Below, in pieces: positions 33,069-51,900 of a DNA stretch of 64,000 bases. Source of the stretch: an uncultured Pseudomonadales bacterium. GTDB taxonomy: Bacteria > Pseudomonadota > Gammaproteobacteria > Pseudomonadales > Azotimanducaceae. The notes under the pieces are model-generated. The model did not search any database. It was not told where the DNA came from and saw only the letters and a program-made list of their open reading frames with translations. Every line of letters starts with the position of its first letter. Position 1 is the stretch's first letter. The stretch is taken from NCBI GenBank assembly GCA_964634815.1, contig CAZWMD010000009.1:45549-109548 (forward strand). Direction: 5' to 3'. The translations under genes and the position numbers were made by a program.

Positions 33069-34474
33069 CAGTCACTAACTACTCGATAGCACGGCTCATA
33101 AGTTGAACCGGGCAATTTCATGCGGCCTTGAGCGACAAAAGAACGCAACACTTCATCAAGCATACGGGTAATTTCCTTATCGCCCTTGATTTCAAGTTTG
33201 CCAAACTCACGGATGCGGGCCACACCTTCCGCCTTCACATTGCCACCAACGATGGCTGAGAATACACGTCGCAGATTGATCGCCAGTTCGTGAGCAGGCA
33301 GATCGCGGGTTAAGCCCAACGCCCGCACGTTTTCGTGGCTTGCATCAAAAGGCAGCTGGTGGCCCGGAGGGATATGCAACTGCCAGTTAAAGTAAAACGC
33401 ATCCCCGGTCCGCCGCCGCTGCGCTCGAACTTTCTTGACCGAGCGCGCCATGCGCCGGGCAACACCGCGGGCATCTCCCACAATGACCTTGTAGTAAGAT
33501 CGCGCCTGCTCCCCAAGGACCGTAGTGATCAGTTTGTCGAGTTGGGCAAAATACTCCGCCGCGTTTGCTGGCCCCGTGAACAGCAAGGGCAACTCAATGT
33601 GCTCATTCTTGGGGTCCATCAATATGCCGAGCATATAAAGCACTTCCTCAGCGGTACCCACGCCCCCTGGAAATACAATAATGCCGTGCCCCAAACGAAC
33701 AAAGGCCTCAAGGCGCTTTTCAATATCCGGAAGAATAACCAGGTGATTGACCATTGGATTGGGCGATTCCGCGGCAATTATCCCCGGTTCGGTTAATCCA
33801 ATATAGCGTGCACCTAACCGACGCTGTTTAGCGTGCCCGATGGACGCACCCTTCATGGGACCTTTCATCGCCCCAGGGCCACAACCGGTACAGATATCCA
33901 GCCCCCGGAGACCCAGGTGATAGCCTACCTCTTTGGTGTACTCATACTCTTCACGCGCAATAGAATGACCACCCCAGCAGACCACCAGATTCGGCCGCTG
34001 ATCCGGGTCCAGGAGCCGCGCATGACGCAAGATCTGAAATACAGAATCTGTAATCTCTTTGCTGGCAGCCTCGTCTTCATCCTCGCCAGTCAAGGTAACT
34101 GCAGGTGGGCGCACTTCGGTTGCCGTATAAACCACATCGCGCAGCACAGCAAACAGATGCTCGCGAACGCCCTCAACCATGCGACCGTCTACAAAGGCGG
34201 CTCGAGGGGCGTTACGCACAATCAGTTTCAAGCCGCGTGTTCGGCGTGACACCTCAACTGAAAAGTCGGTGTAGCGCTCAAACAACTCATGCGCGTCGTC
34301 ACCATCATTGCCCGTATTCAGTACCGCCAATGCACAACGCCGGAATGTCTCGAGCATCTCCAGATGTTCCGGCAACTGGGTGGCCTCAGTGAGCACCTCA
34401 ATCTCACGCTGACTCAAAAGCTCCATCGTGCCGCGCGGACCGACCTGGGTATCAACTGTTTTTCGTTGTGTCAT
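33068..34474 (-). CDS. ppnN: LOG-family nucleotide 5'-monophosphate nucleosidase PpnN (YgdH-like)
   Basis: The 468-aa product contains [16 protein letters not shown] and the LOG motif PGGVGTAEE. Its size and layout match E. coli PpnN. Confidence 0.8.
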
Positions 34475-34494: not shown

Positions 34495-36651
34495 CTAGTT
34501 AGAAGCTGAGCGTCGTGGAGTGAACTCCACACCCACGTAAAGCTGCCTGGGCAACCCCGGGAAATATCGGAAATTGCCAAACGCAAAGTCCGCACGATCA
34601 GCATATTCCTCATCAAGCAAATTTATCACCCTGGCAAACACGCGAACGTTATCCCTGACCTGCCAGCCACCACGCCAATTAAACACAACATGGCCATCAT
34701 AGTCGGCCGTGTTGGCTGCGTTGATGTAATGCTGGCCAACGCCCGTCAATTCCAGTTCAGATGTGAGGGCTGCCGTGGGTTGATATCGCCAGCGCGCACT
34801 GCCTAGCCACCGCGGAGCAGTGTCTACATCATCCCCATCACTGATGGGTTCAGCACCAAAGGAACCATCAAAGTCATACTTGTGTCTGGCATAGGACACC
34901 ACGATATCAAAATTGTGAGCCTCCCCAAGCGCATACTCTGCGCTTACCTCAATACCCTGGGATCGGGTCGCTCCATTACTGACGTTGAACCCTTCGCCAT
35001 CCCGGAATATGAAATCGTCGGTATCATCAAAATAGGCCGCAACCTCCACCTGCGCGGTCTCTCCAACCCAGCGGGCTCCCACTTCAAAGGAGCGCAGACG
35101 CTCGCTGTTCAGATCAGTGGTTTCCTGGCCATTTTGCAGACGATACAACTCCGTTGCCTGGGGTGGACGAAAACCGGTGCTGAAGGTGGCATAGGTGGCT
35201 AGGCGATCGTTCACCTCATAGTTCACGCCGAGTCGGCCTGCTACATTGGTGAAGTCATCTTCTCCCGATGGCGGCCGCGTATACAAACATCCGCCAAATC
35301 CGCACTCTGTGCCGTCTTCCCGAGTATTGCCCGTTAAGAAGAGATTCTCGTAGTCGTAGTTAAGTGTTTCGACGCGCAGGCTATGAACCAGCGACACGCG
35401 GTCTGAGAGTTGGTAATCCACATTATAAAATAATGCGGCCAGCAAACTCTCAACCTCGTAGTCATAGTGAAGGCCCTCGGGGCGTGTTTCTATCAAAAAC
35501 GCAGAGCCAAGAGTTGGACCTTCCTGATCTTCTTTTAACGCCCCATCCAGCAATTCGAGAGTGACACCTACGGTGGCCGAATAGCGCTCACCTACCCGGC
35601 CGAATTGGGCAGTTACGCCGCCACTGGTCTGGTCATTGGTTTCAAGTGGCTGACCAGGTAGAAAGTGTTGAAAGAAAGCCATGCCGGAACGTCTTATATA
35701 AGGTGTTATCGACAGAAATGAATTGTCGCCGATTTCCGTCTGCCAACGGCTGGATGCACGCAGGGACCAAGCATCTCGAAATGCTTCAGGATTTGGATTG
35801 GAATCCCGCAGATCATCGTCTTCAAAGGCCTCAAAACCAAGCACAAAGCCGCCTGTTTCCTGATTGAGGAGCGTGGCTGAAAGTAACGTGCTTACCTGCC
35901 AGCGCCCGACCTCAGCATCGTGATTGATTACCAGTTTTTGCTGCGAGTAACCCGTGTCATCACGAAAACCGTTGGTTGAGGTCGACTGTGCCTTAACGCC
36001 AAAGCTCTGGCCATTGATCTCGGTGCCATACTCCGCCCGGACTTGATAATAATCGAAGGGTCCACCCTCAACACTTAAGCCCAGGCCTGATTGCGGAGTT
36101 CGTTGCAATACGTTAATCGCGCCGTGAACCGCGTTGCCACCAAACAGGGCTCCGGCCGGACCACGCATCACTTCAATACCACTGGCTTGCTCATGGTTAA
36201 CCTCAAAGAGATTATTAATATTGCAAAACCCGGCGGGCCGAATAGGTACGCCGTTTTCCAGAAACAGAAACTCGCCACAAGCACCGGCGCCGGTGAGTAC
36301 AGGTGAGCGAATAGCGGTTAGATGCTCCTGGCCTGATCCGCGAGACACCCAGGCGCCAGCTACCCGCGATAGCGTTTCACTGATGTGCGTTGGGCGAATC
36401 AGGTCAATCTCGTCGGCATCAAGAGTGGTCAGAGAACCCGTGTCACCCACCCGACCTTCAAGACTGCCGGTGACCAGAATTTCTTCGATAGCCGTATCAG
36501 CAGTTTCCTGGTCACCTGCAAAGGTAGCGGAACTAACTCCTAACCCACCCACTAGCAGACAAGCGGAGACCCACAGGGTACAGGGCCTGTTCTTCTCTAA
36601 TGGGGACGTTAAAGAAGGAGCTAAAGACCGTACAGAGATAGAGATAGACAT
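34495..36651 (-). CDS. TonB-dependent outer-membrane receptor
   Basis: The product has a signal peptide ([18 protein letters not shown]) and plug motifs ([76 protein letters not shown]). A long beta-barrel follows, ending in LYVGVEF plus 8 aa. I set the start at the internal ATG 36651; the tracked ORF runs to 36780. Confidence 0.85.
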
Positions 36652-36828
36652 AGGTTGATCGGTTTTACTGCTTTTGACAAAAGACCGGTCGCAGGAAGAG
36701 AGCACTGCGGCCACGAACGTTAGGGTGTCTATCGTCATTCGTCGACAGAGCCGACGCAATTTAGCGAATTTCAGCGCCAAGAGATACCGAGGGTCCCATC
36801 AGGCTGCTGTATTGCAGGAATCCGCTGC

Positions 36829-39800
36829 CTACTCCCAGCCCCCAAACTGACTCATATCAAACCCCGTATCGGAGCCAGCATCTGCGTTGCGGGCCCGAAT
36901 ACCTGGCAATCGTTCGACAAAACGCCGTACCGAGTTTCGGTCAACTTTCAACCGGAACTGCAGGAAGGGACCATGCCGGGTGTAGTCCGCAGCAACAAAA
37001 TCATCATCGACAAAGCCGGTGAAGTTGTAGCCCAGTCTGACCCACATGTCGCGGCGCAGGCTGCGACTCACGGTCAGTCCGGCGCTGACACTCGCAACGT
37101 CACTGAAAGCCGCATAGGTCACATTGGCTTGTGATCCAAGGGTCCACTTGGGGGTCACGTCGTAGCGCGCAGCAAAGCCCAGGAGCCCGGTATAGCCACC
37201 AAAATGATCATCGCCAATCCGATCACGAACATACTTGTTGCCTAAATTCAGACTCCACTCCAGGCCTGGGCGGGGATCTTCGTCCGCATCCAGATTACGA
37301 TACGGATCGCGTTTGTAATTGATGTTCATGTTATGAACAATTTTTCGGGTACGCGTGTCGAAGGTTGAATCCAGCAAATCATCTTGACTGAGGTCGAGAC
37401 GGCTCAACGTAGTCCATCGCGAATTGACTGGCCGCCAGGCAATGCCAAAACGCAGGTCTGTGGTCCGCCGTTCAATGCCCTCGGCGGTATCTTCATCAAA
37501 TACTGCGCCAGACAGAGAGAAAATATTGCCGTCGCGCAGCTGATGACTGATACCAAGCAACAGGTTGGCACGATCACTGCGATCGCCACTATGGTATTCA
37601 ATTCGGGCGCTGGCATCCCACTGCTCACGGCGATAACCCAGACCAACAAAACCGGCGGTGAAATCTTCGTTCAATTGCAGTCCTGTTGTAGAGAGTGCGT
37701 TAGAAAACGCGCCACTTGCTGCCGGTTGTCGAGGTGCAAACACCAAACCATCAGGATCATCAGCCAGACCATTCTCTTCGAGGGTGTTAACGCGGTCCAG
37801 ACCTACATCCAGTAACCAGTAATCGCTGATCCGAAACTGCTGCAAAACACCGCTGGTGGCAAAGAGTCGTTCGGCGTTCTCAGAGATTTGCCGATCCACT
37901 CGGGTATGCACATTGGCTCCAATCCAGGATTGCGCTCGAATCCCGGCCCGGGTGTCCTGGGTATCCCGATCACTGCCCCAGGTGAACTCCTGTTCCGCAA
38001 ACACCGTGATGCCTTTGGGCAGTCGATAATCCACGCCACCGATCACCCGTGTTGGGAAATCGGCACTGTCACCACCGCTATTCAAGCCAATCTCGGCATT
38101 TCCTCTGAGTTGCATGCGGCCCTGAAACAGAGGCTGGGCGATACCTGCAAGAAGTTGTTCTGACTGCAGATTGCGTCCACTCGCGGCAGTTTCATCGACC
38201 TTGCGGGCACCTAACAGCAAACTGGTTGATCGAAGCCTGTAATCTGCTTCAACGCCATAGATGTCTCGCTCACCACCACCAACACCAAGGTCTTGCTGGC
38301 GCTGTGCTTCTGCACGAACAGTGAGTTCATTGCGAACGCGAACTTCCCCTTCCACACCAAAGCGTCGTAGACCCGTCGTTAACGCAGACTGTTGCCCCAA
38401 ACCGAAGCTTGCGTCTTGTTCTCTGAAGAATATTTTTCCGGCGATGCGCTCGCTCTCGTGTAAAAACTCAGCTCGAAAAGCTTCACCTTTGCCGGTTGCG
38501 TCCGAATCAGTGGCGGCAGCCTCGGCTTCTATTCGGTTACTTGCTCCAAATTGCCACTCAGCGTCGAGGCCAACCAGACTGCCACCAACACCAGGTGTTG
38601 CGTCGTCAACGTAGCTTATACCGACCTCGTTCTCGCCAAGACCAGGCGCGTAAGCCACCCGGCCTCCCGCAACAATTTCGTTCTGACGACCGTCAATCTC
38701 GTACTCAACTTCAATAAACTGTGGGTTAAAACTTGCATCCTGGCTTTCAATGGGTCTTTTAAAGATCAGCGTACCGGCGTCGTAATCGATACTGTAGTCC
38801 ACAAATCGGGAGAGACTTACAGTGCTTAGAACCTGATCCAGAGCAAATCGATCCCGCACAACGATACGAACACGTTCGCCGTTACGCACCAGTCCACCAC
38901 GACTCAATCGATACACACCAGAAGTGCCGTCTCCGGCAATGGTGTCGAGCAAGAATCCTTGATCAGTATTGGCGCCAAATACTGAAGCCTTCCAGTCGCC
39001 TTGATAGTAGTCGGCCTTAATGCCATTCAACCTGCGCGAGTAACGAGTAAGTTCACCACGGCTCAGTTGGGTATCAAAATCACCTACCAATAACGCCGCC
39101 ACATCTCGTTCCAGCTTCAAATACAGCTGCCGCGACGTGTCGTTATCAAAGGCCTGTTCTGCACCATCACCGTATAGCGTGTAGAACCGGTTGGGATCAA
39201 TCTGTCGGCGGAAATTCCGATCCTCAGATCGATCGCTGTCGTAACCCAGGGTAAGCAACCACTCGCCGCGAACCTGGCCCTTCGCGTAAAAAGACAAACG
39301 CCCATCCGTCATCACATCTTCCGGAGCATCGCCATCCAACGGCTGCTCGTGAGGCGCAATGGTATTGTACCCGAGGGTGCCTTCGGCCAGTCCAACCAGC
39401 ACCCATTCTCGAGCAACCGGCTTAAGTCGCGCGCGAATGTTCTTTTGCCTGTTGCGATCGAAAGCAAAGTACAGCTGCACCTCTCCCGCCTCGGTTGTTG
39501 GCTCAAGTGCGAGGTATGCCACGCCATCGCTACGGACTATATAACGCTGAATGCCCTGACGACTGCTGTCTGAGAGCTGGCTAAGCGCCTTGTTTTCATC
39601 CAGCGTCCGATAAGGTGCAGAAAGGTTGAATTCACCTGTCATACCCGGGCGGGCGGGCCGATCTTCTCTATCAAACAGTCGAACAGCTACAACCGGGGGT
39701 GTAATGCCATCCGCGATCAAATTAGACGACTCGAGCGCAAGCTCGGCGCGAACCGGAACACCAGAAAGCCAGGCTACCCGTTGGATAGATTCAATTTGTG

Positions 39801-42800
39801 TGCCGTCTTGGGTTTCGAATTGACTGGACAACATGTTGTATCCGTCATTTAGAACGACGTTCTTCCACAAGGTAACAGCATTACCTTGTTCACGGTTCAC
39901 AACGATGCTGTCAAAAGTCAAAGGATCAACAAGGGCGCCATTCACCAACAAACTTGGCCGCACACCCAGCTTGTGTTTCACCGCAACGGCGATCGCAGGG
40001 TTGGCTGGATTGGAATCGACCAGCGGCCAGACAAATTCGGCGGCCTCGTTCTGCGTCGCGAGCCACTGGGCATCAAAGTCAGGACGCGGGTCAGGCTCAA
40101 TATCGGGCAACACATCTGGCACCGGACTATGGATCGTGCGCTCCCCGGTTAGCTGCACAACGGCGACTTCACTGGCTGCGGAAATCGCACCCGAACCAGG
40201 CTCAGCAACACGAATTTTGACATCCGCCTCCTCGCCTGCGGCGACCTGCCGACTCTTCAGCGGTTGCGCTGTTCGTCGATCACTTGCATGCCACGCGCCC
40301 AGCGGCTTGTCCCTGTTAGAAGAATTTTCTCCGCCTTTGGGATTTCTTTCAGAAATACCCAGCGCGCGTTTTCTCGCAGCGCGTTGGGCTGGTGTTTGTA
40401 CATCTTCAGTCTCCTGCCAAACGATGCCGCGTTGATCAGCGCGAGCGTCTGAATCACTTATCGCCGTTATGTTCAAACTGCTGGGAGCGGCTGTGTTCAC
40501 ACTGGCCACAACCTGGGGTAGTTGATGCGCAAAGTCGCCCATTCGAAAGCGCGCTGTAGCGCGAGTTGCATAGCGCTGCTCGCGACCGGCAACCTTGGCT
40601 CGAAACATTAGTTGCGCAGAAAACTCTCCCTCTGGCAGATCGAGTTCAAAGAATACAAGGCCGTCTCTATCGGGGCCGGTGCCTGGCGTCGGCAATCCGT
40701 CAAAGGTTGCACTACCCCGCGTGTAGTCCAGCCCTTCGGGTAACAACACTTCCAGCCTGAAAGCGGACAGTGGCTGAGGGGCATCGCCTTGCAACAGGTA
40801 GCGATATTGCATCTCGCCGTTCTTGTAGCGAGCCAACAACCGGCCCTGCAGAGGGCCCTGCGCCACACCAGGAGCCTGCACTCGAAAGTCTGCGCGCCAC
40901 AACGACCCGCCCTGAAGCTCCACAAACTGTGTGGTCGATGATTCCGCGAAGCGGTTGTTGCGTTCACACGCCAGCGGCTCAAGGTCACGAGGCAGAGTAG
41001 ATACTTCCAAGTGAACAACATGAGCGCCCGGTTGCAAACCTTCAACATGGTATCTGCCCTGCTCATCCGTCAGCACAAAGGTACCGTCCTCGAGCAATAC
41101 CCGAACACCCGGTACCGGAACACCAGGCTCATTGCAGGGCCCGGCCAAAACCTGACCCACAATGGTTCCAAAGTTGCGTAACAGATCGTCCTGCACAAAC
41201 ACAACGGCTTGCGCACGGTTGCTTGTCGCCACGCCTTGCCCTGATACCCACGCGTTGTTTACAGCACGTCCTTCACGTGCACCTGGCGTAACCTCAACAA
41301 CATAGGTTAGAGCGAGTACTTCTAATGGGCCAATATCGGGAAGTGCAATCGTCAGCGACCGGCCTGTCGAATCAAATGTCACCGGAGTGCCGTTTGGCAC
41401 AGCGCCATCGAAGCGAAGTGAATCCTCGACCAGTCGGAAACCTCGAGGCAACTGGTCATGCAACACCAGCTCACCGAGTCGCCCGTTAGCCGGATTATTA
41501 ACATTCAGCGAATATTGAACAACATCGCCAACGGCAACCGTATCTCGGCTGGCGATCTTCTCAATGAAAACTTGCGCAGCCAAAACATCAACAGGCACCG
41601 ACCCACCTACCGAGCGCGCGTTTGTCAGTGTGAACACCTCGCCACGCTCAAACGGGCCTTCAAAGAACAACGAGAGCTCATCGTCGCTGGCCAGCGTAGG
41701 GAAACCGAGACCGGCAGGCGGCTCTACCAGCAATCGGTAGCTGCCCGGGGCAACGATAGGAAATGAGAATTGACCCGGAGCAAAGTTCGTCACCCTGCCC
41801 GCATCATCTGTAACAGAGCCGCCAGACACTACAGTAGATGGAAAGCCTGATACCCCATCTGCTGCCAGAACCGTCACAGGTTGCCCGGTCACCGCATCAA
41901 CAAGTGTGATTCGGACACCATCAACCAATGAACCATCTACCGCGTTGAAAACCAGGCCCGTGGCGTCAATACCACCAACCAAATCAATACTGTCCTCTTC
42001 GTCATCCGGATCAATGTAGCTAAACAAAATATCCGCGCCATTAGGACTGGATACCAAACAATCACCTGGAACTGAGGCACCCTCAGTACTTTGGATGTAA
42101 CCAACAAATACCCCACTGGAAAGATCCGTTTCGGTTAGAACTATTGATTCGTGATCAGCCCCATTGGCACTCGAAATGGATACTCTCACCGTATCTACGG
42201 CGTTCAAAGAGAGATCCTGGTCGGGGTCTACGATCTCAACGAACAGCGCATCTCCCGCGCTATAGAGGGTATTCGTAACAAGGCTAAGATCGGTCACTGG
42301 ATAATCGATTCCCACAGAATCAGTTGCGGGAGCGAGCACGATATCGGAGCCTCCTGCAACACAAATCCCCTGAGGATCCGACACCAGAAGGTCGCCACCG
42401 GTTTCTCTGATGGCACGGTGCAAACGCCCGATTGCCGGGGTTGGCGGTTGCAACTGCAGATCTAGCGGAACGTCGACAACAAACAGTCCTGATTGCCCTA
42501 CTGCAAGTGGGTCACCACGCGAGCCCGGTTCCAGCGAAAAGGGTGCGCCAGAAAGCGTCTGCAGTTCGGCGTCGGTGACTACCGATGGAAACACGTATCG
42601 CCCGGGGGGAACTATTTCATAGCGATACTGACCGGGTGCCAGTGTTGGAAAGCGGAACTCCCCAGTACCAAAGGCATACACCGTGCCTGAAGCATCCGTA
42701 ACTGTGCTTCCACTTAATAGCGTAGAAGGAAAAGCGCTAGCCCCATCGTCTCCGAATACAGCTGCTGGATTACCTGTCGCTGCGTCTATCAGGGTAATCA

Positions 42801-44148
42801 GAGCACCGTCTATCAAGTGTCCGTCAACGGCCCCAAAAACGCGGGAGCGCGGATTTACAACCGCCGCGGTACTTGCAAATATACTGCCGTCGATGGCATT
42901 GGTGTAGGTAGCAAAGATCTGGTCGTTTGGCGCAACAAAGAGCACGCAGTCTCCCGGCGCAGAAGATACAGCTACCGTTTGAATGTAGCCAAAAAACTCA
43001 CCGGTGTCGGTTCCGGTTTCGGAAATTGCAAGCGTTTCAGCATCACCCGCCGTTCCTTCCAGGCGAACAAACACACTATCTATCACCGCAGGGTCAAGAT
43101 TAGCTCCCGCGTCGCTGACACGGAAGAAAGCAGTGCCTCCTGCGCGATAGACTGAGGTAGAGCTTAAGTCGATGGAAAGCGGAAAAGTGTAGAGAGTGCC
43201 GTCTGCTTCGTTTGAAGTTGCGATCGCAGCAAAGCTCCCTGACGTGGCAGCATTATCACTACAGGATGTCAGTGGGACATTCTGTGGCGACCCCAGCACA
43301 CTGTCAGGAGCAAAGAAATCTATAACGGCAGTGTTAGCCGGCAATCCCACCTGCAAGGTATGGGGAGTGCTAATCGTCAATCCACCCTTATCGGTAGCTG
43401 TAATGACTACAGTAATCGGCGGACCTGGAGGTAGGCTAACCCCCGGCGCTAACCGCAGCTCACTACCGACTACAACAAAACGATTGTCGTCAACGGTGAA
43501 CGTGTGGTTGTCTACATTATCCGGGTCGGTAACGCTGAGCGGCCCAATAACTGCACCCGGCGCGTTTGGAGGAACAGATGTTGCCTCAAGAGTAATGCTG
43601 TCGGGCGCTTCGTTAACATCGAGAATGGTTACAGTCACCGGAACAACAGCGCTTTGTCCGGCGGCATCAACAACCGTCACCTCAAGAACGATAGGCGCAT
43701 CAACTTCAAAGTTAAACACCGTACCAGGCGCAAGTTGCAGACTATCGCCATCAACAATAAATCTGTCATCGGATACGCTAAAGGTGTGCGTATCCGTAGA
43801 ATCAGTGTCAGTAGCATCAAGCACACCCAAAACGACGCCGTCGTCGTTTTCCGGTACTTCAAAATTGGTAAGCGTCAATCCCGTCGGCGGTGAGTTACCG
43901 GCGAATGGGTCGGCCACTATGGTGACACTACTGGAGGTCTCAACGGGCGAACCAGAAGCCAGATAGCTCGCGGTAGCCGTGTTGGTAATGGGGGTGTTTG
44001 GGTCGATGGCGTAAGCCAGAGAGGCACACAGCATCTGCAAAACAAAAATTACCGCGGAAAGAGGCATACCTCCAGCACGGCACGGCGTTACCGCCCCGAC
44101 CTTGCTGGAGGATGCCTTATCCATGCGGTACTTATCGACCGAAAACAC
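36829..44148 (-). CDS. giant (2439 aa) secreted multidomain protein: cadherin-like repeats, duplicated Ig/CarboxypepD_reg-like modules, DUF11 domains, Big_1-like domain and a C-terminal beta-barrel-like region of about 860 aa
   Basis: The signal peptide is [20 protein letters not shown], and the start (GTG 44148, ATG 44124 or ATG 44067) is unresolved. Residues about 85-268 form two cadherin-type repeats ([28 protein letters not shown]...[29 protein letters not shown]). Residues about 318-845 form two paralogous modules. Residues about 858-985 look like DUF11 ([34 protein letters not shown]). Residues about 993-1050 look like CarboxypepD_reg ([10 protein letters not shown]...[32 protein letters not shown]). 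Residues about 1460-1562 look like an invasin/intimin Big_1 domain ([22 protein letters not shown]). From about residue 1575 to 2403 there are alternating amphipathic strands with aromatic ends ([39 protein letters not shown]). Confidence 0.75.
   Translation of the reverse strand: [2439 protein letters not shown]
41614..43197 (-). repeat. intragenic duplication: two paralogous modules of about 220 aa (residues about 318-550 and 626-845) in the giant protein
   Basis: The two modules align by eye. [55 protein letters not shown]...PGDCVL matches [55 protein letters not shown]...[58 protein letters not shown] matches [52 protein letters not shown]. Confidence 0.8.
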
Positions 44149-44165
44149 TTACTACTAACTCTGCC

Positions 44166-45521
44166 CTAGGCGTCGTTAATAGTTACGAAATACAGGACAA
44201 ATGCTGTCTCTTGAGGCGCGCAGGTCCCTAGAGTCGCAGATGACACATCGATTTCGTTAGGATCAGCCGTGAAGGCTTGTGACGTGTTGGTATTGCTACA
44301 AGTAACAATAGTAACCTGATCGTCATTGATCGAACCGGGCAACGTGAAGGTTACGTTGTCGACTTCGGCTGACGGATCCACATCTATCGTCAAGCTGGTC
44401 GGCATGTTGATAGTTTCAGTAGACGTATTGCCTACAGAGACTGCCGGCGTTGGAATGTTATCTCGCAGGAAGGACATCGTAATCGTGCCACCGCCCAAAA
44501 GTTCATCATTCTTTGCCGCAATCACATACATCACAACAGCACCAGGAATCGCTTTGGGGTTATCGCCCGAAACCGCACCTGCAGCATCGAAAAACTGCGC
44601 TCCCGAAATCGGATCCCAGACTGTTTGCGAAGTTTTCACCAGCAATACGCCCGGAGGCAGAATAATGTATGCACTGGTATCTGAGTCCTGACCATTGTTG
44701 GGAACGTCTGTTGTTGTTCCACCGGTCGACGCGTTGAAGTCATAGACCAGGTCTTCTGAGGAATGCGGACCAACATCTGCAAACACAACTTCTACCGTGG
44801 CTGGATCATCAGCAACGTCCACTGCGCCGGTAAAACCGGGAGCGTTGTTGCCGTTGTCATCACCCTCTATTGGCTCTTGGGCGCCCGTATAGTGGGTCGC
44901 AACCAACGAGTAGGTTGCAATCTGATCAACGGTTGCGGTGCCCGGAACATCTACAACCACCAGAACTGATGTAGTGATGTCTTCGCCAAGCTGTGAGCCA
45001 AGGCCAGCGTCCAGATCGTACTCACCAGAGGCGGTAGGCACCAAAACGGTATCGACGCCATCGTCGAACAGTCCATTTCCATCGGTGTCAATCGCTACCA
45101 GAATGGCATCGTCATTAAACGAAGGAAACGGACCCGCTCCTGTTGGAGGACCCGCAAAGGCGCTAACGCCTACACCGTCCTGATCGACAACTCCCAGCAA
45201 AACCGAGGTTGCATCGTTACCCGTGTTGGTGACATTGAATCGCAGTGCAGGAACGCCAGTTTGGCCGGCAAATTCCTGACCCGGCGCGACACTAACGTAG
45301 TTAGAGTCCGTCGCTTCAACGTTAAGAGCAAGCTTTCTATCTACCACAAAGGTAGCATCAGCTGTCTCGGAGATAGGCGGGCCTCCTCCTACGGTGTATT
45401 CCAATGACACACTGTTAACGACACTGGATCCAGCGTCGGTGCCCGCAGCAAAAGACGGGATAGACCCGGCCACTGCGCAAGCTACGATCAGGCCTTGCCC
45501 AATCTTTCTGAAGTACTGCAT
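44166..45521 (-). CDS. secreted 451-aa acidic beta-rich protein, paralogous to the 367-aa protein; C-terminal DUF11-like domain
   Basis: The ATG is preceded by GGAAGGA plus 6 nt. The signal peptide is MQYFRKIGQGLIVACAVAGSIPSFA. The mature N-terminus AGTDAGSSVVNSVSLEYTVGG is shared with the 367-aa protein. A Ca-binding-like DxDxDG segment is present (AIDTDGNGLFDDGVDT). The C-terminal part (KAIPGAVVMYVIAAKNDELLGGG) resembles DUF11. Confidence 0.7.
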   Translation of the reverse strand: MQYFRKIGQGLIVACAVAGSIPSFAAGTDAGSSVVNSVSLEYTVGGGPPISETADATFVVDRKLALNVEATDSNYVSVAPGQEFAGQTGVPALRFNVTNTGNDATSVLLGVVDQDGVGVSAFAGPPTGAGPFPSFNDDAILVAIDTDGNGLFDDGVDTVLVPTASGEYDLDAGLGSQLGEDITTSVLVVVDVPGTATVDQIATYSLVATHYTGAQEPIEGDDNGNNAPGFTGAVDVADDPATVEVVFADVGPHSSEDLVYDFNASTGGTTTDVPNNGQDSDTSAYIILPPGVLLVKTSQTVWDPISGAQFFDAAGAVSGDNPKAIPGAVVMYVIAAKNDELLGGGTITMSFLRDNIPTPAVSVGNTSTETINMPTSLTIDVDPSAEVDNVTFTLPGSINDDQVTIVTCSNTNTSQAFTADPNEIDVSSATLGTCAPQETAFVLYFVTINDA

Positions 45522-45636
45522 GGTTTGTCCTTCCGTTACTTCAAGTTACAAAAGCAAACACACCGAAGCCCAAAAGCCCGGTGCGTTTCCGTTTTGCGCA
45601 GCCGTCGTAGCCGCGCGACAGGTATCGAACGGATGA

Positions 45637-46185
45637 CTATTTCAGTCTCACGTTGAACGACACCGTTCCTGTTGCACCCGGCTCAAGGCCTGGCGCATAG
45701 ACCCAACGAATGGTCGTATAGTCACTGGCATTCGCTGGAGCTTCAGAACCGTTTTCCGAGACGCGAAGTGCACTTGGCGGACCAAACTGCGCTCCTGCAT
45801 CTACGGAATAAAGAATTTCGGCGGCCTCACCAACGGCAGTGCCTTCCAGATATTCGGTATTACCCGGTACCGGGTTGGTTATAACTACCGAACCGGCATC
45901 AACAGCCTCTTCGCCGACATTGGTAAAGCGCACGGAGTAACGAAGTTCGTCACCCGGAATAACGCGATTGGGTGGCACCAGGCGGCGCTGAACGCGGCCC
46001 TGATCATCTACATAGCGGTCAACCTTATGTACTTCGTTAACCAGCTCTACGCGAGCCTGCGCAAAGGGAGCGGCAAAACTTGCGCTCACTGCTAATACAG
46101 CGGCAACCTTTGTGAGCGTCGAAAGGCATTTCTTCTGCAACAGTGATTTGCAAAAGTTTTGATGCGAACATTTTTTAAGAAACAT
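45637..46185 (-). CDS. secreted single-domain DUF11 (TIGR01451-like conserved repeat) protein
   Basis: The signal peptide ends in AVSASFAAPFAQA. The DUF11-like core is VIPGDELRYSVRFTNVGEEAVDAGSVVITNPVPGNTEYLEGTAVG...YTTIRWVYAPGLEPGATGTVSFNVRLK. The start is probably the second ATG (46185), which is preceded by GGAGGA; the tracked ORF starts at 46200. Confidence 0.7.
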   Translation of the reverse strand: MFLKKCSHQNFCKSLLQKKCLSTLTKVAAVLAVSASFAAPFAQARVELVNEVHKVDRYVDDQGRVQRRLVPPNRVIPGDELRYSVRFTNVGEEAVDAGSVVITNPVPGNTEYLEGTAVGEAAEILYSVDAGAQFGPPSALRVSENGSEAPANASDYTTIRWVYAPGLEPGATGTVSFNVRLK

Positions 46186-46266
46186 AGATCCTCCGATCAT
46201 TTGTGTTTGTCAGCCAATCCCCTGCCTGCAAAAACAGGTGGGACCTCTTTGGGTAAGGAAAGGCAT

Positions 46267-47370
46267 CTACTGGACAATGGCCTGATACTCGATAGTCAGA
46301 CTCGTGGGGCCAGAGACATCACCAAAGTTCACTTCAATGGTGTCGCCGGTTACGCCGGTGTTATCCACACCAGCAGGTAAAAGGTCGTCGTCAGCCTCTT
46401 CGCCCGCGGGCAAACCAACAACGGAAAGAGAATTTGAGGCGTACAAAAGCTCGCCAGGTACAGGATCGGTAACCACTAGCGACTGCGCAGAACCAGTACC
46501 AAAAAGCTCCACGAGTACGCGGTAGCTAACAACACTGCCAGGCACGACACTGCTGCCGCCAGAAGGGTCGGCGATATCAAAAGCAGTTTTGGTGATGGTG
46601 ACGCCAACGTTGTTAACCAGATAGTCGTGACGATCAGCAAACAACGGATTGGCCAGGTTGTAGCTCAGACCTACCATCGCATCGACAGTACCCGACCCAT
46701 TCGAGCGATTGTCACCGAGACCGCTGAAGACATCACCGACCCCAGGAAAGCTCACCTGTGTTGGGTCATCAGTTCCTGCACCGGTGACAATCGTTGTGGC
46801 CACAGCACGCAATTCGAGCAGCGCTGTTTCATCAACCGACACGCCAGGTGGAATGTCTGCAGTAACGTAAATCAAGAGAGATTCGTCGGGCACCAAGACT
46901 GGGTCATTGGTACCCGCGATGTACTCCTCATCACCGCCAGGGCCGGACTGGAAGCCAGCAATACCGTTGGATTCGAGATACAGGGTGTTAAAAACAGGGT
47001 CAAAGTCGTCACCGCCCAGCGCCGTCTGGCCAATCAGCCGAAAGGCTTCCGTGCCGTTACCCAGGTTAGTCAGCGTGTAGCTCTGAAGAGCCTCGATCTG
47101 TCCCGCAACAACTCCCACAGAACTGGCATCAGCGCTGATGACAGAGACTTCCAATAGCTCTTGAACAAAGAAGGTGTTGAGGCTGCTGGCAGTAAGGTCT
47201 GCGCCACCCAGGGTGTAACTCAGAGTGACGGTATTTGGGACTTCCTCGCCTGCGCCAGTTCCACCGGCCCAGGAAAGATCGGCGCACAAACACACAAGCA
47301 CGGCAAAGACCCACGCGATACAAAAGTGCGCTGGTCTATGAAATAGCCCTGTGTAAGCGGTGCTTTTCAC
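46267..47370 (-). CDS. secreted 367-aa acidic beta-rich protein, first gene of the cluster; C-terminal DUF11-like domain
   Basis: The GTG start is preceded by AAGGA plus 4 nt. The signal peptide ends in CADLSWA. The mature N-terminus is GGTGAGEEVPNTVTLSYTLGG. The C-terminal DUF11-like segment is VVPGSVVSYRVLVELFGTGSAQSLVVTDPVPGELLYASNS. Confidence 0.7.
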   Translation of the reverse strand: MKSTAYTGLFHRPAHFCIAWVFAVLVCLCADLSWAGGTGAGEEVPNTVTLSYTLGGADLTASSLNTFFVQELLEVSVISADASSVGVVAGQIEALQSYTLTNLGNGTEAFRLIGQTALGGDDFDPVFNTLYLESNGIAGFQSGPGGDEEYIAGTNDPVLVPDESLLIYVTADIPPGVSVDETALLELRAVATTIVTGAGTDDPTQVSFPGVGDVFSGLGDNRSNGSGTVDAMVGLSYNLANPLFADRHDYLVNNVGVTITKTAFDIADPSGGSSVVPGSVVSYRVLVELFGTGSAQSLVVTDPVPGELLYASNSLSVVGLPAGEEADDDLLPAGVDNTGVTGDTIEVNFGDVSGPTSLTIEYQAIVQ

Positions 47371-47525
47371 GAGATCCTTATCGTTATCAGTCGCGAACCG
47401 GAAGGTTCGGGTACATCCACAGGAGCCACATCGTGTGGTCCTTTAGAAGCTCGGGGGACTGTAGATAAGGGCAGCAACGGAGTGCGTGACGGGACGCACA
47501 GTGTCAATGCATCGTTGCCAAAAGC

Positions 47526-47538: not shown

Positions 47539-47632
47539 AATTTTTGCGGGATTAGGTCACGCTTACTGCATGAGCCAGACAAAGGGTGACCCAGTCGAGG
47601 TTAACCCTGAGAAGTCGCCGGGTTAAGGTTTA

Positions 47633-47860
47633 CTAGGGGTCATCTGAAGTACGCAGGGTCGTACTTTGTGTTTCGGGATCGAACCAGATTTCCGCGTCTC
47701 CATTCTTTAGCAGTTGGCGCACAGCCAGTCGTTTTGCCTGGAGTGTCAGAGCGTCGTGACCTTCGCGAAAATCACCATAATCCGTGCCCTCACGCAGCAC
47801 GTAGTCATCAACAACGCCGTTTAGCGCCTCATCTGAGAGCTCTTGATAGGGTATCTTCAT
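47633..47860 (-). CDS. yheU: YheU family protein (UPF0270)
   Basis: The 75-aa product reads [30 protein letters not shown]. This is colinear with E. coli YheU (..[28 protein letters not shown]..). Confidence 0.75.
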   Translation of the reverse strand: [75 protein letters not shown]

Positions 47861-48139: not shown

Positions 48140-48847
48140 ATGTCAGAACAAGATCACATACTGGTAGTCGAAGACGAGCCAATAACCCGAGAACAGCTCG
48201 TGGCGTACTTCGAAGAAGAAGGCTTCAAGGTAACCTCTACCGGTTCAGGCGACGAGGTTCTGCCGCTTGTACAAAATTCCGACATTATCCTGGTATTGCT
48301 GGATATCAAGCTGCCTGGAAAGGACGGCCTGACACTAACCCGGGAGATTCGGGTTCAATCAGATCTCGGCATCATTCTGGTCACGAGCAAGCAAGAACAG
48401 ATCGATCGCATCCTCGGTCTTGAGAGCGGTGCAGATGATTACGTAACCAAACCGTTTGACCCTCGAGAGCTATTGAGCCGTTCACGCAACCTTATCCGGC
48501 GTGTACAGCTGCAGCAGAAACAGCGCAAGAAAAACCATCTACGCACCTTCGATGGCTGGACTCTCGATCTGAACAAGCGCGAGCTGACATCCCCGGAAAA
48601 CGAAAAGCAAACACTGTCCGCTGGCGAATACCAGTTACTACTGGCATTTATGGAACAAGCGGGCGAAGTAATGAATCGGGACCAACTGATGAACCGAATC
48701 CGCAACCGCGAGTGGTTCCCGGATGATCGCTACATCGACGTACTTGTTGGGCAGCTACGGAAAAAACTGGGTGAGAAGGCCGCTAACGCCAAGATTATCT
48801 CAACCATCCACGGCACCGGCTATCTGTTCACACCAGAAGTGGCATAA
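48140..48847 (+). CDS. OmpR-family response regulator (ArcA/TorR-like)
   Basis: The product contains ILVVEDEPITREQL, LVLLDIKLPGKDG, GADDYVTKPFDPREL and a winged-helix C-terminus (ISTIHGTGYLF). Confidence 0.9.
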   Translation: MSEQDHILVVEDEPITREQLVAYFEEEGFKVTSTGSGDEVLPLVQNSDIILVLLDIKLPGKDGLTLTREIRVQSDLGIILVTSKQEQIDRILGLESGADDYVTKPFDPRELLSRSRNLIRRVQLQQKQRKKNHLRTFDGWTLDLNKRELTSPENEKQTLSAGEYQLLLAFMEQAGEVMNRDQLMNRIRNREWFPDDRYIDVLVGQLRKKLGEKAANAKIISTIHGTGYLFTPEVA

Positions 48848-48992: not shown

Positions 48993-51900
48993 ATGGCTCA
49001 AGCAGAACACACGTTGATCTACGAGAGCGCATCTACCCTGGTGCGCCGCCGCACGGCGGACGCTTCCCGCGATGGCATAAATGCTATTTCGGGACCAGAC
49101 AGCACTGTGATCAGCAAATCGCTGAAACCCCACGCCGCCACTCCGACGGCGATCTCTCGCTACTACCACGAATTCACCGTCAATCAGTCTTTGACGTCAA
49201 ACTACGTGTGTCGCGCACTCAGTTTCGATGAGCGCCTGCCAGAGATAACGCTAGAGGACACCGGCGGTGTCGCGCTGAAACTTCTGATAAAGCGCAACGA
49301 TCTCGACTGGGAGGACAAGCTACATATCGCAACCGAACTGTGCCGAGCCGTCCAGTCTATTCACGACGAAGGTGCCGTACATCGCGATCTGAATCCAGCC
49401 AATGTCATCGTTAACCTGGGTACCGAAAGCCTGAAGCTGATAGATTTTGGCCTGGCGACTCTTGCATCTCGGGAATACAGCGAGGTAGAGGCAGGTCAGC
49501 TGACCGGCACTCTGCCCTACATTTCTCCCGAGCAAACGGGTCGAGTGAATCGACTAATCGATTACCGTACCGACCTTTACTCTCTGGGAGCAACCCTGTA
49601 CGAACTCTTCGCCGGTGCTCCCCCCTTCGTTAACACCGATCCACTCGAACTCATCCACAGCCACATCGCCCGCACACCCGCACGTCTTTCAAGTCTCAAA
49701 GAAGACCTGCCGCGCTGGCTTTCGGATATCGTGCAAAAGTTACTGGCCAAGCAACCTGAAGATCGCTATCAAACCGCTGAGGCCGCCCGGGCAGACATAG
49801 AACTTGGCGCCGCCACCGTCTCACAAGCGCCGGGTGACGATGTTGTGCCATTTGTACTGGGCCGGACAGACTCAAAAGGTCAGCTCACTCTGCCACGTAA
49901 GGTTTATGGTCGAGAGCAAGAAGTTGCCAAACTCGAAGAACTCTCGGTACGTGCAGGAGACGGCGAGTCTTTGATTGTCCAATTGATTGGCGCTCAAGGT
50001 ATCGGCAAACAAAGCCTGACCAAGATGTTTGCTGCCCAGTTTCGCCAAAATGGTGGGCTATCAGCGACTCTGGATGCATCGCGAGATAATGAGGGCCGCC
50101 AGGAAGGACAACCAAAGGGTGCGCTGGATATCGCGCGTCAGCTATTGCGACAGGTGTTATCCCGAGACGACGAAAGCTCAAATGCTTATCTGACCAGACT
50201 AAGAAACCTCGGCGAAGATGCCGTCGAAGCGCTGCGCAATCAAATCCCAGAACTGGCGATGGTTTTCCAGCAGCCCATGCATCAGAACGCCGAGCCTGCT
50301 GACCAGGTACTGCAATCTCTTCTCAAATCGTTGTCGCCCATAAGCCTGCTGATTGTGCTGGAGCAACCCCAGCGTTGGGATCGCAGCGACCTGCGGGAGC
50401 TCATCGACGATCTGATGTCGCTCAACAATGTGATTATCATATTGTCGATGGAATCGGCCGCGGACCTCGATATCGACGCCTACCGCCTGCGCACTACCCA
50501 TATCGAGCTTGCCCCTCTGGGCAGACCTGCAGTAAGGCTGTTACTGGCCGAGATGTTTTCTCACACCGAGGCAAAGGTGCGAGAGCTTGCGCAAGAAATC
50601 CATGACAAAACCGAGGGCTATCCAAGTCAGGTGATCAGCCTGCTCTACGAATTGCATGCAAAACGCGCCGTATTTTATGACCCTCTCGATGGCGGCTGGT
50701 CATGGCAAATTGATGCCATCCGGAGTCACTATTTCACTGACAATTCGGTAGAACGGATATCTAACCTGCTATCCCGCATGCCAGAACGGACTCTTGAATT
50801 ACTGCGTATCGCGGCCTGTCTCGGCAACAACTTCAATGCTGCAGCACTATCGCAGTTGTCTCTGACCGAACACAGTGATGAAGCTGATGTTGCCAAAGAA
50901 CTCAACTATGCCCTGAATCTGGGGGTGGTGGCGAATAAACAGGCCAGCTTCGATGATGGCCCGCTCTATCGTTTCGCCCATACCGATATTCGCGCCCGAA
51001 TCTATGCCGACATGGGCGATGCCGAGAAATCTCGATTACACCGCGGCATCGCTGATCACCTGATGTCTCGCTCCGCAGCGATCTCCAATCCATCAAATCA
51101 GACTGTGCGTCTTGAAGGCGAACGACTGATCCTCATGGCGGAGCACATGAACGCTGCAACCAACCCTCTGGTTGCTGACGCTGAGGCGTTGAATCAGGTT
51201 GCTTATCACAACCTGCTGGCGGCCAAAGAACTGTTGCGCCAGCAAGACTATCGAGCCGCCTTCAACATGGCGCACACCGCATTGCGACTTTATTTGCGCG
51301 GTGATCTGGAGGCTTCACTACTCAATCAGGAGCTAACCCTGTGTGCCGCAGAGGCCGCTTTTCTGTGCCCAGACTTTGACCAGCTGGAACGCCTGCTTGC
51401 CGAATCTGTTAGCAGCAACCTTACTCTTGATGAGTTCGGCATACGCATGGACTATGCCAGAAACAGACTCAGCGAAGGCCAGGAGCAAGCGCTTTCCTCA
51501 ATCAGGCAGCTCAGCCCGCTGCCCGCAGCCTCACGGTTTGCACCAACGGTACAGCCGCTGGCTCATGACCAGACCATCAAGAGTTGTACCGACGCCGAGT
51601 TCCAACAGCGCGCCAGGTTATGCGCCTACGCCCTGCCCCTTGCGTTGCAGCTCGGCGACGACACTCTGATCAAACTGGCGGCTCGTATAAATGAACAAGC
51701 TGCAAATAGTGCTGGTTATTGTCCTGAAATCAGCTATCTACTCGCCGTTCAAGCTACGTGGGAGCATCACAAAGGCCATCACGAGAAAGCCGAAGTATTG
51801 GCAAATTCTGCTCGTGAACTCGCCAGCCACTGGTCGAACAATCAGTTTTCGATCAGAGCACGTGCAACCCTTTATGGCCTCTACGATGGCTGGGTTGCAC

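Follow-up and report, generated by a model that had tools for sequence, protein, structure and literature searches.

How could four adjacent genes for secreted, Ig-like proteins give rise to a structure on the surface of a diderm bacterium when no known fibre-assembly machinery is encoded with them? The question is raised by a locus of an uncultured Pseudomonadales bacterium (Azotimanducaceae), which lies in a 64,000-nucleotide stretch of contig CAZWMD010000009.1 (assembly GCA_964634815.1) that is called the window below. The locus, or cassette, consists of four open reading frames (ORFs) on the minus strand: P1 (46267-47370, 367 amino acids (aa)), P2 (45637-46200, 187 aa), P3 (44166-45521, 451 aa) and P4 (36829-44148, 2439 aa). 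The evidence considered here is computational throughout, and comes from sequence and predicted structures. The main new result is a domain of the CLIPPER family that appears to be split between separate chains. P1, a secreted two-domain subunit, and its secreted paralogue P3 would each act both as donor, through an N-terminal hairpin, and as acceptor, through an unfinished C-terminal domain. P2 is a single truncated CLIPPER-like domain and would be an acceptor only, and P4 would be a donor only, with a hairpin followed by an adhesin-type stalk, a linker, two beta-sandwiches and a giant barrel. We put at roughly 0.55 the probability that these products form a fibre that is assembled from tip to base by hairpin donation, is probably locked by isopeptide bonds, and is exported and anchored by the barrel of P4.

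The four genes travel together. Their order, P1-P2-P3-P4, is kept in every related locus with sufficient upstream sequence (about 55), and the carriers include Gamma-, Beta- and Alphaproteobacteria, Desulfobacterota-type "delta" lineages, Nitrospirota and Lentisphaeria. Cultured bacteria with the cassette include Sphingobium phenoxybenzoativorans (L002), Ramlibacter paludis (L080) and Novilysobacter antarcticus. Chance is far too weak an explanation for an identical four-gene order in so many loci. The proteins encoded upstream of the giant gene have median lengths of 343 aa (P1-like), 165 aa (P2-like) and 396 aa (the P3 slot). P1 is the first gene of the cassette in 52 loci and has 91 homologues, P3 (58 homologues) occupies the slot before P4 in 55 loci, and P2 is the best conserved of the small proteins. 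No account of the cassette, of the P4 barrel or of split CLIPPER domains turned up in a search of the literature.

A putatively split CLIPPER domain

CLIPPER is the new name for DUF11, a CnaA-like fold in which an autocatalytic, intramolecular isopeptide bond connects a Lys in strand 1 to an Asn in strand 8, with an Asp as catalyst; the triad of the structure 9IFR in the PDB is K715, N806 and D748, and the proteins described in the survey of the family are single chains with intramolecular bonds only (PMC12617251). One complete domain of this kind is found inside P4 (41191-41589, minus strand). Alignment to 9IFR places Lys715, Asp748 and Asn806 on Lys864, Asp898 and Asn964 of P4, so that the whole triad (Lys in strand 1, Asp in a "tD.lP" motif, Asn in strand 8) is present in one chain, and the CLIPPER domain 9IFR was the only match in a PDB sequence search with the P4 profile. 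Of the four proteins, P4 alone passes the Pfam DUF11 model (35.9 bits against a cut-off of 24.6, aa 862-973), with weaker Pfam matches to CarboxypepD_reg, SdrD_B and cadherin. An earlier reading of this DNA, made from the sequence only, had assigned DUF11/TIGR01451 signatures to all three small products. This holds for P2, which together with P4 passes the NCBIfam model TIGR01451 (30.9 bits for P2, cut-off 24), but P1 stays below the cut-off with a DUF11-type score of 22.1, and P3 has no DUF11-type match in Pfam or NCBIfam.

Profile-profile comparison places the C-terminal domains of both P1 and P3 in the CLIPPER family and locates the point at which they end. The acceptor domain of P1 (46270-46626, minus strand), which contains Lys261 and Asp302, aligns to the complete CLIPPER profile with an hhalign probability of 97.8% (E 9e-13) over template columns 19-104 of 143, and that of P3 (44169-44669, minus strand), with Lys296 and Asp354, aligns with a probability of 96.3% over columns 21-105 of 143. 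Both chains stop after strand 7, right before the CLIPPER strand "G..avN.A.A", and every P1, P2 and P3 across the loci terminates within a few residues of the strand-7 sequence. Because the Asn is found only in N-terminal hairpins, P1 and P3 are classed as split variants of CLIPPER rather than as standard members. The small proteins had been noted to carry no recognizable sorting tag, and their ends agree with this: the chains stop right after a beta-strand, which is followed by neither a motif nor a transmembrane segment nor a charged tail.

A counterpart of the missing strands stands at the other end of the chains. The mature N-termini of P1, P3 and P4 share the pattern "GT.(a)GT.I.N.A.v.Y.v.g......SN.v...V", which is that of CLIPPER strands 8-9. 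The putative donor hairpin of P1 (47161-47265, minus strand; aa 36-70) comes directly after the signal peptide and contains the core I-x-N-x-A-x-v-x-Y with Asn46; those of P3 (45339-45446, minus strand; aa 26-61) and P4 (43909-44007, minus strand; aa 48-80) contain Asn36 and Asn56, respectively. A hidden Markov model of the P1 hairpin also matches P4 (E 4.6e-4), and the hairpin motif is not present at the N-terminus of P2. When the N-terminal motif was written as a strict regular expression, it matched 87 of 150 P1, P3 and P4 ORFs, none of 35 P2 ORFs and only 7 of 697 other ORFs. Five of these seven are clear, unlisted homologues of P4 or P3 by length and phmmer, and the remaining two look, by position only, like fragments of P1 or P4. 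In P1 and P3, strand 1 of the next domain begins within two residues of the hairpin, like the junction of tandem CLIPPER repeats. Behind the P4 hairpin stand unrelated domain types that differ by lineage (a cadherin-like domain in the window), and this hairpin thus behaves as a portable module. The simplest reading of these arrangements would be a beads-on-a-string array in which the chain breaks fall in the loop between strands 7 and 8.

The residues that would form the bond are strongly conserved on both sides of the break. The Lys and the Asp of the P1 acceptor are each found in 53 of 53 loci, and those of the P3 acceptor in 55 and 56 of 56, respectively. The donor Asn is present in 54 of 55 loci for P3, in 54 of 56 for P4 and in 44 of 50 for P1, which is the only relaxed donor. 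Independent sets of metagenome sequences gave the same picture, with Lys261 and Asp302 invariant in 59 P1 homologues and, in 48 P3 homologues, Asn36 and Lys296 invariant and Asp354 conserved in at least 90%. Two controls are available within the cassette itself. The complete middle domain of P1 conserves no triad, and in P2, where the catalytic position has become Asn in 46 of 56 loci, the Lys also drifts (present in 30 of 56).

Donor and acceptor were also joined in silico. When a native hairpin profile was appended to an acceptor profile, the alignment to CLIPPER was extended and the hairpin Asn fell on the column of the isopeptide Asn. Score gains ranged from about 0 to 7.0, with 2 of the 9 pairings slightly negative, and the largest gain was obtained with P2 and the P1 hairpin. 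None of 18 controls with reversed or shuffled hairpins gained in score, though one reversed control did extend the alignment. Chimeras of single sequences pointed in the same direction, weakly.

Further proteins of the acceptor-only type, 800-1370 aa long, are encoded upstream of P1 in eight loci from Desulfobacterota and Nitrospirota (L025, L026, L030, L035, L036, L042, L065 and L074) and at 12654-15590 of L086, a distant variant described in the last section. They consist of a signal peptide, a head domain, DUF11 and a C-terminal truncated CLIPPER domain that keeps the Lys and the Asp ("TDPvPA"), and they have no hairpin. The head of the L030 protein, the only one scanned, is an L-type lectin (PF18483). 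Since the truncated domain of these proteins comes without a hairpin, it could be completed only by another chain, and by analogy the proteins look like FimH-style tip adhesins of this system.

The proposed fibre and its predicted outer-membrane barrel

The structure that we propose would be a surface fibre, or an extended adhesin stalk, in which the boundaries of the polypeptides are offset by two beta-strands from the boundaries of the domains. The last CLIPPER domain of P1 and P3 would keep its Lys and Asp and lack the Asn-bearing strands 8-9, with which the mature chains of P1, P3 and P4 would instead begin, in the form of a free hairpin. After export by the Sec pathway, each hairpin would slot into the incomplete C-terminal domain of its outward neighbour. 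Lys, Asp and Asn would thereby be brought together, and the most likely outcome would be a spontaneous intermolecular isopeptide bond, that is, a natural Tag/Catcher reaction. Acceptor-only proteins would start the fibre at its tip (P2 here, lectin-headed adhesins in other lineages), P1 and P3 would extend the chain, and the donor-only P4 would end it, its stalk and its barrel of about 38 strands tying the fibre to the cell. The order from tip to base is likely to be P2, P1, P3, P4, because P1 is the only relaxed donor and P2 the only relaxed acceptor, and the largest profile gain, that of P2 with the P1 hairpin, is in line with this order. The sequence-only reading had taken the small proteins for subunits carried by the giant one; the split domain supplies a molecular rationale for this suggestion, in which they would be exported and anchored by P4.

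The P4 barrel is given the role of usher as well as anchor because it alone is a candidate for the passage across the outer membrane. The chain would leave the cell tip-first through this barrel. If the hairpin of P4 is added last, the stalk would follow and the linker (aa 1226-1356) would stay in the lumen. The two sandwich domains would remain periplasmic, as would an OmpA module, whether it is internal to P4 or, as in Acinetobacter, encoded by a separate gene. P2 may be a tip cap, or it may be a reversible, catalytically dead chaperone that binds hairpins; the latter role is suggested by the fact that P2 is highly conserved, mostly lacks the catalytic Asp and coexists with lectin adhesins. 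A more ambitious picture, which we hold only tentatively and regard as somewhat less probable than the fibre in its general form, is that of a new class of Gram-negative pilus or adhesin. Here a chain of split CLIPPER Tag/Catcher units would be extruded through, and tethered to, the largest single-chain outer-membrane barrel so far predicted; the barrel would combine the functions of usher, terminator and anchor, and P2 would be a dead decoy acceptor that chaperones the hairpins.

A barrel-like region had been noted at the C-terminus of P4, and AlphaFold2 indeed predicts barrel strands at about aa 1580-2400, making this region a predicted membrane barrel and not a soluble domain. The model of the whole module was computed on an alignment of 46 sequences, with a mean predicted local distance difference test score (pLDDT) of 78.7 and a predicted template modelling score (pTM) of 0.70. 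It begins with two conserved beta-sandwiches (39412-40080, minus strand; model residues 1-221, pLDDT about 85-92), which are probably periplasmic. The predicted outer-membrane barrel itself (36943-39411, minus strand) is a long run of about 38 antiparallel strands that extends to model residue 1044 or so. A mini-domain of five strands (38743-38934, minus strand; P4 aa 1739-1802, DSSP strands 386-444) is inserted after approximately the seventh barrel strand. It is the most conserved stretch of the family, with invariant columns dense from G383 to D432, and by its position it is plug-like, recalling the plug of ushers, and may lie in the lumen.

Comparison of the barrel with the PDB by Foldseek returned generic large barrels only (MtrB, SprA, Deinococcus SlpA, LptD, FimD/PapC and BtuB), with template modelling (TM) scores of at most 0.19 when normalised to the query and at most 0.36 when normalised to the target. 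The matches to the ushers FimD and PapC (E about 5e-6, TM 0.19-0.27, root-mean-square deviation about 24 Å) were no better than those to MtrB, SprA or LptD. Kinship of the barrel with ushers or with MtrB was rejected on the query-normalised score. The P4 barrel is a new family, not a diverged usher or autotransporter. The earlier view that the four proteins fall outside the characterised pilus and secretion families agrees with these results and with the searches of Pfam and NCBIfam, in which no such family was matched.

No Pfam model exists for the C-terminal module of P4, and the module is widespread. A search with the last 1083 aa of P4 gave more than 579 homologues, which align over about 97% of this query at 35-47% identity. 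Most are the C-terminal halves of proteins about 1,600-1,900 aa long, and their annotations are limited to "hypothetical", "DUF11 domain-containing", "TIGR01451 repeat protein" and "OmpA family". A scan with one genome per species found relatives in at least 593 genomes, among them Pseudomonadales, Woeseiaceae, Steroidobacteraceae, Thiotrichaceae, Ramlibacter, Thiobacillus, Sulfuriferula, Methylophilaceae, Desulfuromonadales/Geobacter, Desulfatitalea, Nitrospirota and Lentisphaeria, and Sphingobium was added by a separate search. A HMMER pass over 1.84 billion cluster representatives yielded at least 2,505 protein clusters at E values up to 1e-30, and the module was C-terminal in nearly all of the 150 matches listed. 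The family can be described as a module of about 1,050 aa, two sandwiches plus the giant barrel, that ends proteins of about 1,500-3,000 aa.

In the window, aa 280-850 of the P4 stalk (about 41600-43310) contain an internal duplication, each copy of which consists of a domain with the motif "...L.ETG..TG.F.GYIQ" followed by a transthyretin-like CarboxypepD_reg domain. With this duplication and two N-terminal cadherin-like repeats, the P4 of the window exceeds the family median by about 450 aa. Separately, a set of plasmid matches (H3-H10) covers only the first third of the barrel module, at 26-36% identity, in Sinorhizobium, Kovacikia, Synechococcus NIES-970, Pacificitalea, Nitratireductor and Ralstonia. 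These partial matches span the first barrel strands and differ in whether they reach the inserted mini-domain, and one of them bears the annotation of a TonB-dependent receptor. It may be that this third of the barrel module is a more widespread unit that can move on its own.

Alternative readings and known systems

Several points weigh against the proposed fibre, and they have to be set beside the evidence above. The proposal rests entirely on sequence logic. The gains in the joining test were small, and all chimera scores lay under the Pfam cut-offs. A hairpin by itself gave no significant match to the CLIPPER profile (probabilities of 0.4-3.4%), which is attributed to its shortness. The strand count of the barrel and the position of the plug were read off the DSSP list and not from coordinates. 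In some homologues of P4, a peptidoglycan-binding OmpA domain separates the stalk from the barrel module, an arrangement in which either the chain must cross the barrel lumen or the stalk is periplasmic. The proposed pairing of P2 with P1 has no statistical support: the state of Lys and Asp in P2 varies with the presence of the P1 hairpin Asn in the right direction but not significantly (8/8 against 36/42). Furthermore, the place of P2 in the fibre is uncertain, because loci with both P2 and a lectin-headed protein hold two acceptor-only proteins. The last two points concern P1. In the AlphaFold2 monomer of this protein the hairpin has a pLDDT of 95-97 and must therefore dock somewhere in its own chain, and Asp327 and Asp329, which are near-invariant in the P1 acceptor domain, could in principle act as a same-chain partner of the Lys.

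These observations on P1 lead to the alternative that survives best, although we consider it unlikely: four self-contained proteins, with P4 an autotransporter-like adhesin, P1-P3 DUF11 proteins that act independently in the periplasm or after secretion, as accessory, matrix or folding factors, every hairpin folded onto its own chain and the isopeptide bond intramolecular. Such proteins would account for the P1 monomer, a confident and compact set of tandem beta-sandwiches (pLDDT 91.4, pTM 0.75), for the typical occurrence of DUF11/CLIPPER domains in single-chain adhesin stalks (PMC12617251), and for the two Asp residues of P1, which might stand in for the missing Asn. The ordered hairpin does not discriminate between the models, because AlphaFold models of other pilins built by strand complementation also show the donor strand folded back (PMC11821415). 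Nor do the Foldseek matches of P1, which are generic Ig-like tandem domains, including SafDAA and the isopeptide-bearing C-domains of AgI/II. The composition of the cassette argues against self-contained proteins. P2, the lectin-headed proteins and the 978-aa protein of Acinetobacter are truncated yet have no hairpin with which to complete themselves, and P4 has a hairpin yet no truncated domain to receive it. The hairpin also stands before unrelated domains, the truncation falls in the identical loop in three paralogous families, and the strict linkage of the four genes would be left unexplained.

Still less likely, in our judgement, is a fibre that is complemented by strands but contains no covalent bonds, the conserved Lys and Asp serving in folding or binding. 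Its best support comes from the weak points of the triad: P2 is without the catalytic Asp in 46 of 56 loci and without the Lys in 26 of 56, the hairpin Asn of P1 is replaced in 6 of 50, and oligomers of the N35A variant of the Clostridium perfringens pilin BsaA are stable in SDS without the bond (bioRxiv 10.1101/2024.11.04.621531). A role in folding or binding does not readily explain why Lys and Asp are invariant at precisely the isopeptide positions of two acceptors, across phyla and at about 30% overall identity, why the Asn is near-invariant in two donors over the same range, or why the middle domain of P1, which is complete in cis and triad-less, conserves none of these residues. A third possibility, a non-fibre envelope machine whose barrel is a transport or sheath channel in the style of MtrB-MtrA, LptD or SprA with the Ig-like parts as conduit or gate, can draw on the top Foldseek matches (MtrB, SprA and LptD), the OmpA domain of some homologues and the TonB-dependent receptor gene that adjoins the cassette in this clade, but it is very improbable, given that the query-normalised TM scores of at most 0.19 mark those matches as generic, that the receptor gene is a neighbour in only 9 loci, that the stalks bear cadherin-like and lectin-type adhesin modules, and that cytochrome, lipid-transport and type IX secretion partner genes are missing from the cassette.

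The proposed fibre resembles several known systems in part but belongs to none of their families except through the CLIPPER domain, and the likenesses drawn below to chaperone-usher pili and to BsaA are analogies by sequence only. The absence of known machinery that the sequence-only reading had reported is borne out: no PapD, usher, sortase, autotransporter, type I secretion, curli or Fap family was matched in Pfam or NCBIfam among the scanned proteins. There is a parallel in logic with the chaperone-usher pili (Fim, Pap). There, too, the subunits are Ig-like, exported by Sec and incomplete in fold, and the N-terminal part of the following subunit supplies what is missing, as the N-terminal hairpin would do for the truncated C-terminal domain here, in a different fold. 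Acceptor-only tips, lectin-headed in some cassette loci, recall FimH with its lectin and its incomplete pilin domain. In each system a small domain is inserted near the start of a large outer-membrane barrel, which is a predicted one in the cassette, and both have an RNA hairpin between the subunit genes and the gene for the membrane component. The differences are as clear. No PapD-like chaperone (PF00345/PF02753) was found in the four cassette ORFs and four flanking ORFs that were scanned, there is no PF00577 match, and the cassette barrel has about 38 predicted strands as against 24 in the usher. The donor would be a two-stranded hairpin and the acceptor a CnaA-like CLIPPER domain, the Lys/Asp/Asn triad implies covalent locking, and a single polypeptide, P4, would serve as terminator subunit, anchor and barrel. 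As proposed, the system would be a strand-complemented surface fibre with an outer-membrane pore, built from unrelated parts.

Type V secretion also joins a passenger and a barrel in one polypeptide, with a Big_1-like sandwich beside the barrel. Its barrels, however, have 12 strands (PF03797; PF11924 in intimin and invasin), neither model is matched in P4, and the P4 barrel is about three times larger. We know of no partner subunits in type V secretion. As for the type V pili of Bacteroidota, whose pilins are made as lipoprotein precursors and cut by proteases ahead of strand exchange, no such precursors were found among the cassette products: the signal peptides are of type I with AxA sites, and a lipobox-like "IVAC" in P3 is not conserved in the P3 family. 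Sortase-built pili (SpaA, RrgB, Spy0128) share with the cassette the CnaA/CnaB-type isopeptide domains, covalent links between subunits and a division into tip, shaft and base. Their intersubunit bond is made by sortase, from the Thr of LPXTG to a pilin Lys, whereas the bond in the cassette would be the domain's own autocatalytic one, split over two chains. No LPXTG is present in P1-P3, and no sortase family was found among the window proteins scanned.

Chemical precedents exist for a bond of this kind. BsaA of C. perfringens polymerises spontaneously and without sortase by "donor-strand exchange and lock" with an N/K/E triad (bioRxiv 10.1101/2024.11.04.621531). As proposed for the cassette, an Asn on its donor strand comes together with a Lys and an acidic catalyst, both of which lie in the neighbouring subunit's sheet. 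BsaA differs in its TasA/camelysin-type fold, its Gram-positive host, its need for SipW and type IV pilus genes, its lack of an outer-membrane component and its homopolymeric nature; none of P1-P4 matched the TasA or peptidase M73 families, and the cassette contains no signal peptidase gene. The archaeal threads of Sulfolobus (Saci_0406) are likewise beads on a string joined by donor-strand complementation, with a proposed intersubunit isopeptide and a putative cap gene adjacent (PMC9715654). In the threads, the bond runs from Asn57 to the amine at the N-terminus of subunit n+2; the subunits have an unrelated fold, and neither an outer membrane nor a barrel is involved. In the SpyTag/SpyCatcher pair a split isopeptide domain reconstitutes and ligates spontaneously (PMC6539128), with one reactive residue on a strand and the other, together with the catalyst, on the remainder. 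That pair is man-made, derived from CnaB2 and based on Lys-Asp; its counterpart in the cassette would be natural, of CnaA type, based on Lys-Asn, donated as two strands and polymerising. Finally, CLIPPER fibrillar adhesins such as Acinetobacter silvestris B9T28_05395 (9IFR) are mirrored by the complete CLIPPER triad and the accessory domains of the P4 stalk, and by the OmpA module of some P4 relatives, but split domains, companion subunits and a giant barrel have not been described for them (PMC12617251).

Gene setting, expression and significance

The sequence-only reading had described four closely spaced, consecutive minus-strand genes for secreted products and had suggested surface assembly outside the known pathways, an overall interpretation that is supported by the present analysis. 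Its ORF coordinates were reproduced exactly. Its gaps of 66, 115 and 17 nucleotides are right as distances between ORFs, but the last, between P3 and P4, is probably about 98 nucleotides in reality, because a GGAGG-U-AUG sequence at Met28 of P4 sits in the 3' arm of an RNA hairpin. The true start of P4 is probably this Met28 (ATG 44065-44067), and that of P2 is probably Met6 (at 46185), from which public gene callers obtain a length of 182 aa. Signal peptides, assessed by eye, are present on all four products as claimed, each with a charged n-region followed by a hydrophobic stretch and a cleavage site of the AxA type, and the Shine-Dalgarno-like sequences reported for the first three genes are AAGGA for P1, GGAGGA before Met6 for P2 and GGAAGGA for P3. 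The small products had been called acidic, which is true of P1 and P3 (isoelectric point 4.05 each) but not of P2, which is near-neutral (6.74). Their composition is as described, with V, G, T, A and D abundant and Cys nearly absent from the mature parts: the Cys residues of P1 and P2 are confined to the signal region, and mature P3 has two. The same locus is present on 19 public metagenome contigs of an uncultured organism, and the genes present are consistent with a gammaproteobacterium.

A long, GC-rich RNA hairpin (44063-44116, minus strand) lies between P3 and the probable start of P4 at Met28, inside the 5' end of the maximal P4 ORF. Strong structure after the P3 stop codon was predicted in 71% of 55 loci (median z -3.18), compared with 10% of loci after P1 and 20% after P2. 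This hairpin may attenuate transcription or mask the ribosome-binding site, and it fits an arrangement in which the subunits are made in excess over the anchor. Two further RNA hairpins (45556-45616, minus strand) occupy the spacer between P2 and P3, the second followed by a U-rich tract, and may form an attenuator. A 141-nucleotide stretch here folds at -50.8 kcal/mol (z -3.4, equalled by none of 200 shuffles). Similar structure is seen in the close relatives L004, L007, L008 and L017 and is not general. A scan for promoter and terminator consensus sequences gave fewer, or no more, sites than shuffled sequence and was uninformative.

Clustering of the flanking ORFs over 82 loci showed nothing else conserved across lineages except two-component regulators, whose genes adjoin the cassette in 21 loci. 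For this reason two genes divergent from the cassette of the window are candidate regulators: an OmpR-type response regulator (48140-48847, plus strand; Pfam Response_reg and Trans_reg_C), also found in the closest genome (L003), and the adjoining kinase of 2169 aa (48993-55502, plus strand). The latter is a fusion of Ser/Thr kinase, AAA_16, GAF, PAS, hybrid histidine kinase, receiver and Hpt parts. The OmpR-type protein would stand outside the structure itself, as a candidate regulator. Recurrent neighbours that were checked against Pfam (helicase, TsaB, DsbB, MutL and porin) are housekeeping genes and look lineage-specific. Just upstream of P1, public gene callers place a 75-aa gene of the UPF0270 family (PF06794; about 47630-47860, minus strand), which was not seen in other lineages. 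A gene for a GGDEF-EAL protein (56387-57904, minus strand) lies about 9 kb from the cassette, and a link of the putative adhesive structure to cyclic di-GMP through this gene is possible.

Downstream, also on the minus strand, are genes for a TonB-dependent receptor (34495-36780) and PpnN (33068-34474) and the ccm operon (about 25.7-33.1 kb). This order is repeated in L001 and a few of the closest loci, L003 among them, and because of this restriction it is regarded as clade-specific synteny and not as part of the system; the receptor gene is a conserved neighbour in only 9 loci. With smc, zipA and ligA farther out, the neighbours are core chromosomal genes, in agreement with the earlier remark that neither integrase nor insertion-sequence genes flank the locus. 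No further donor or acceptor protein was found in the 64-kb window. The setting of the distant, degraded variant L086 is different: it lies at 190-204 kb of the mobilizable plasmid p4 of Acinetobacter haemolyticus w12 (CP085288), next to a transposase gene. It encodes a P2-like protein, a P4-like protein of 2008 aa, an adhesin-like protein of 978 aa and, after the giant gene, a separate OmpA-family protein, and its P1- and P3-like genes are split into several short ORFs, apparently by frameshifts.

The hypothesis hinges on a few residues, namely K261, D302 and N46 of P1, N36, K296 and D354 of P3, and N56 of P4. If it is true, diderm bacteria would have a route to covalent surface fibres that uses no chaperone-usher, sortase, type IV, type V or curli machinery. 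This route would span at least 593 species-level genomes and about 2,500 protein clusters, from sediment, soil and water lineages as well as Acinetobacter, and would explain the many small DUF11/CLIPPER proteins that are encoded beside giant ones. The split domains would then provide natural, orthogonal Tag/Catcher-like pairs for protein ligation, two or three per locus, and P4 would provide a new giant barrel for studies of outer-membrane protein biogenesis and of the secretion of folded domains.

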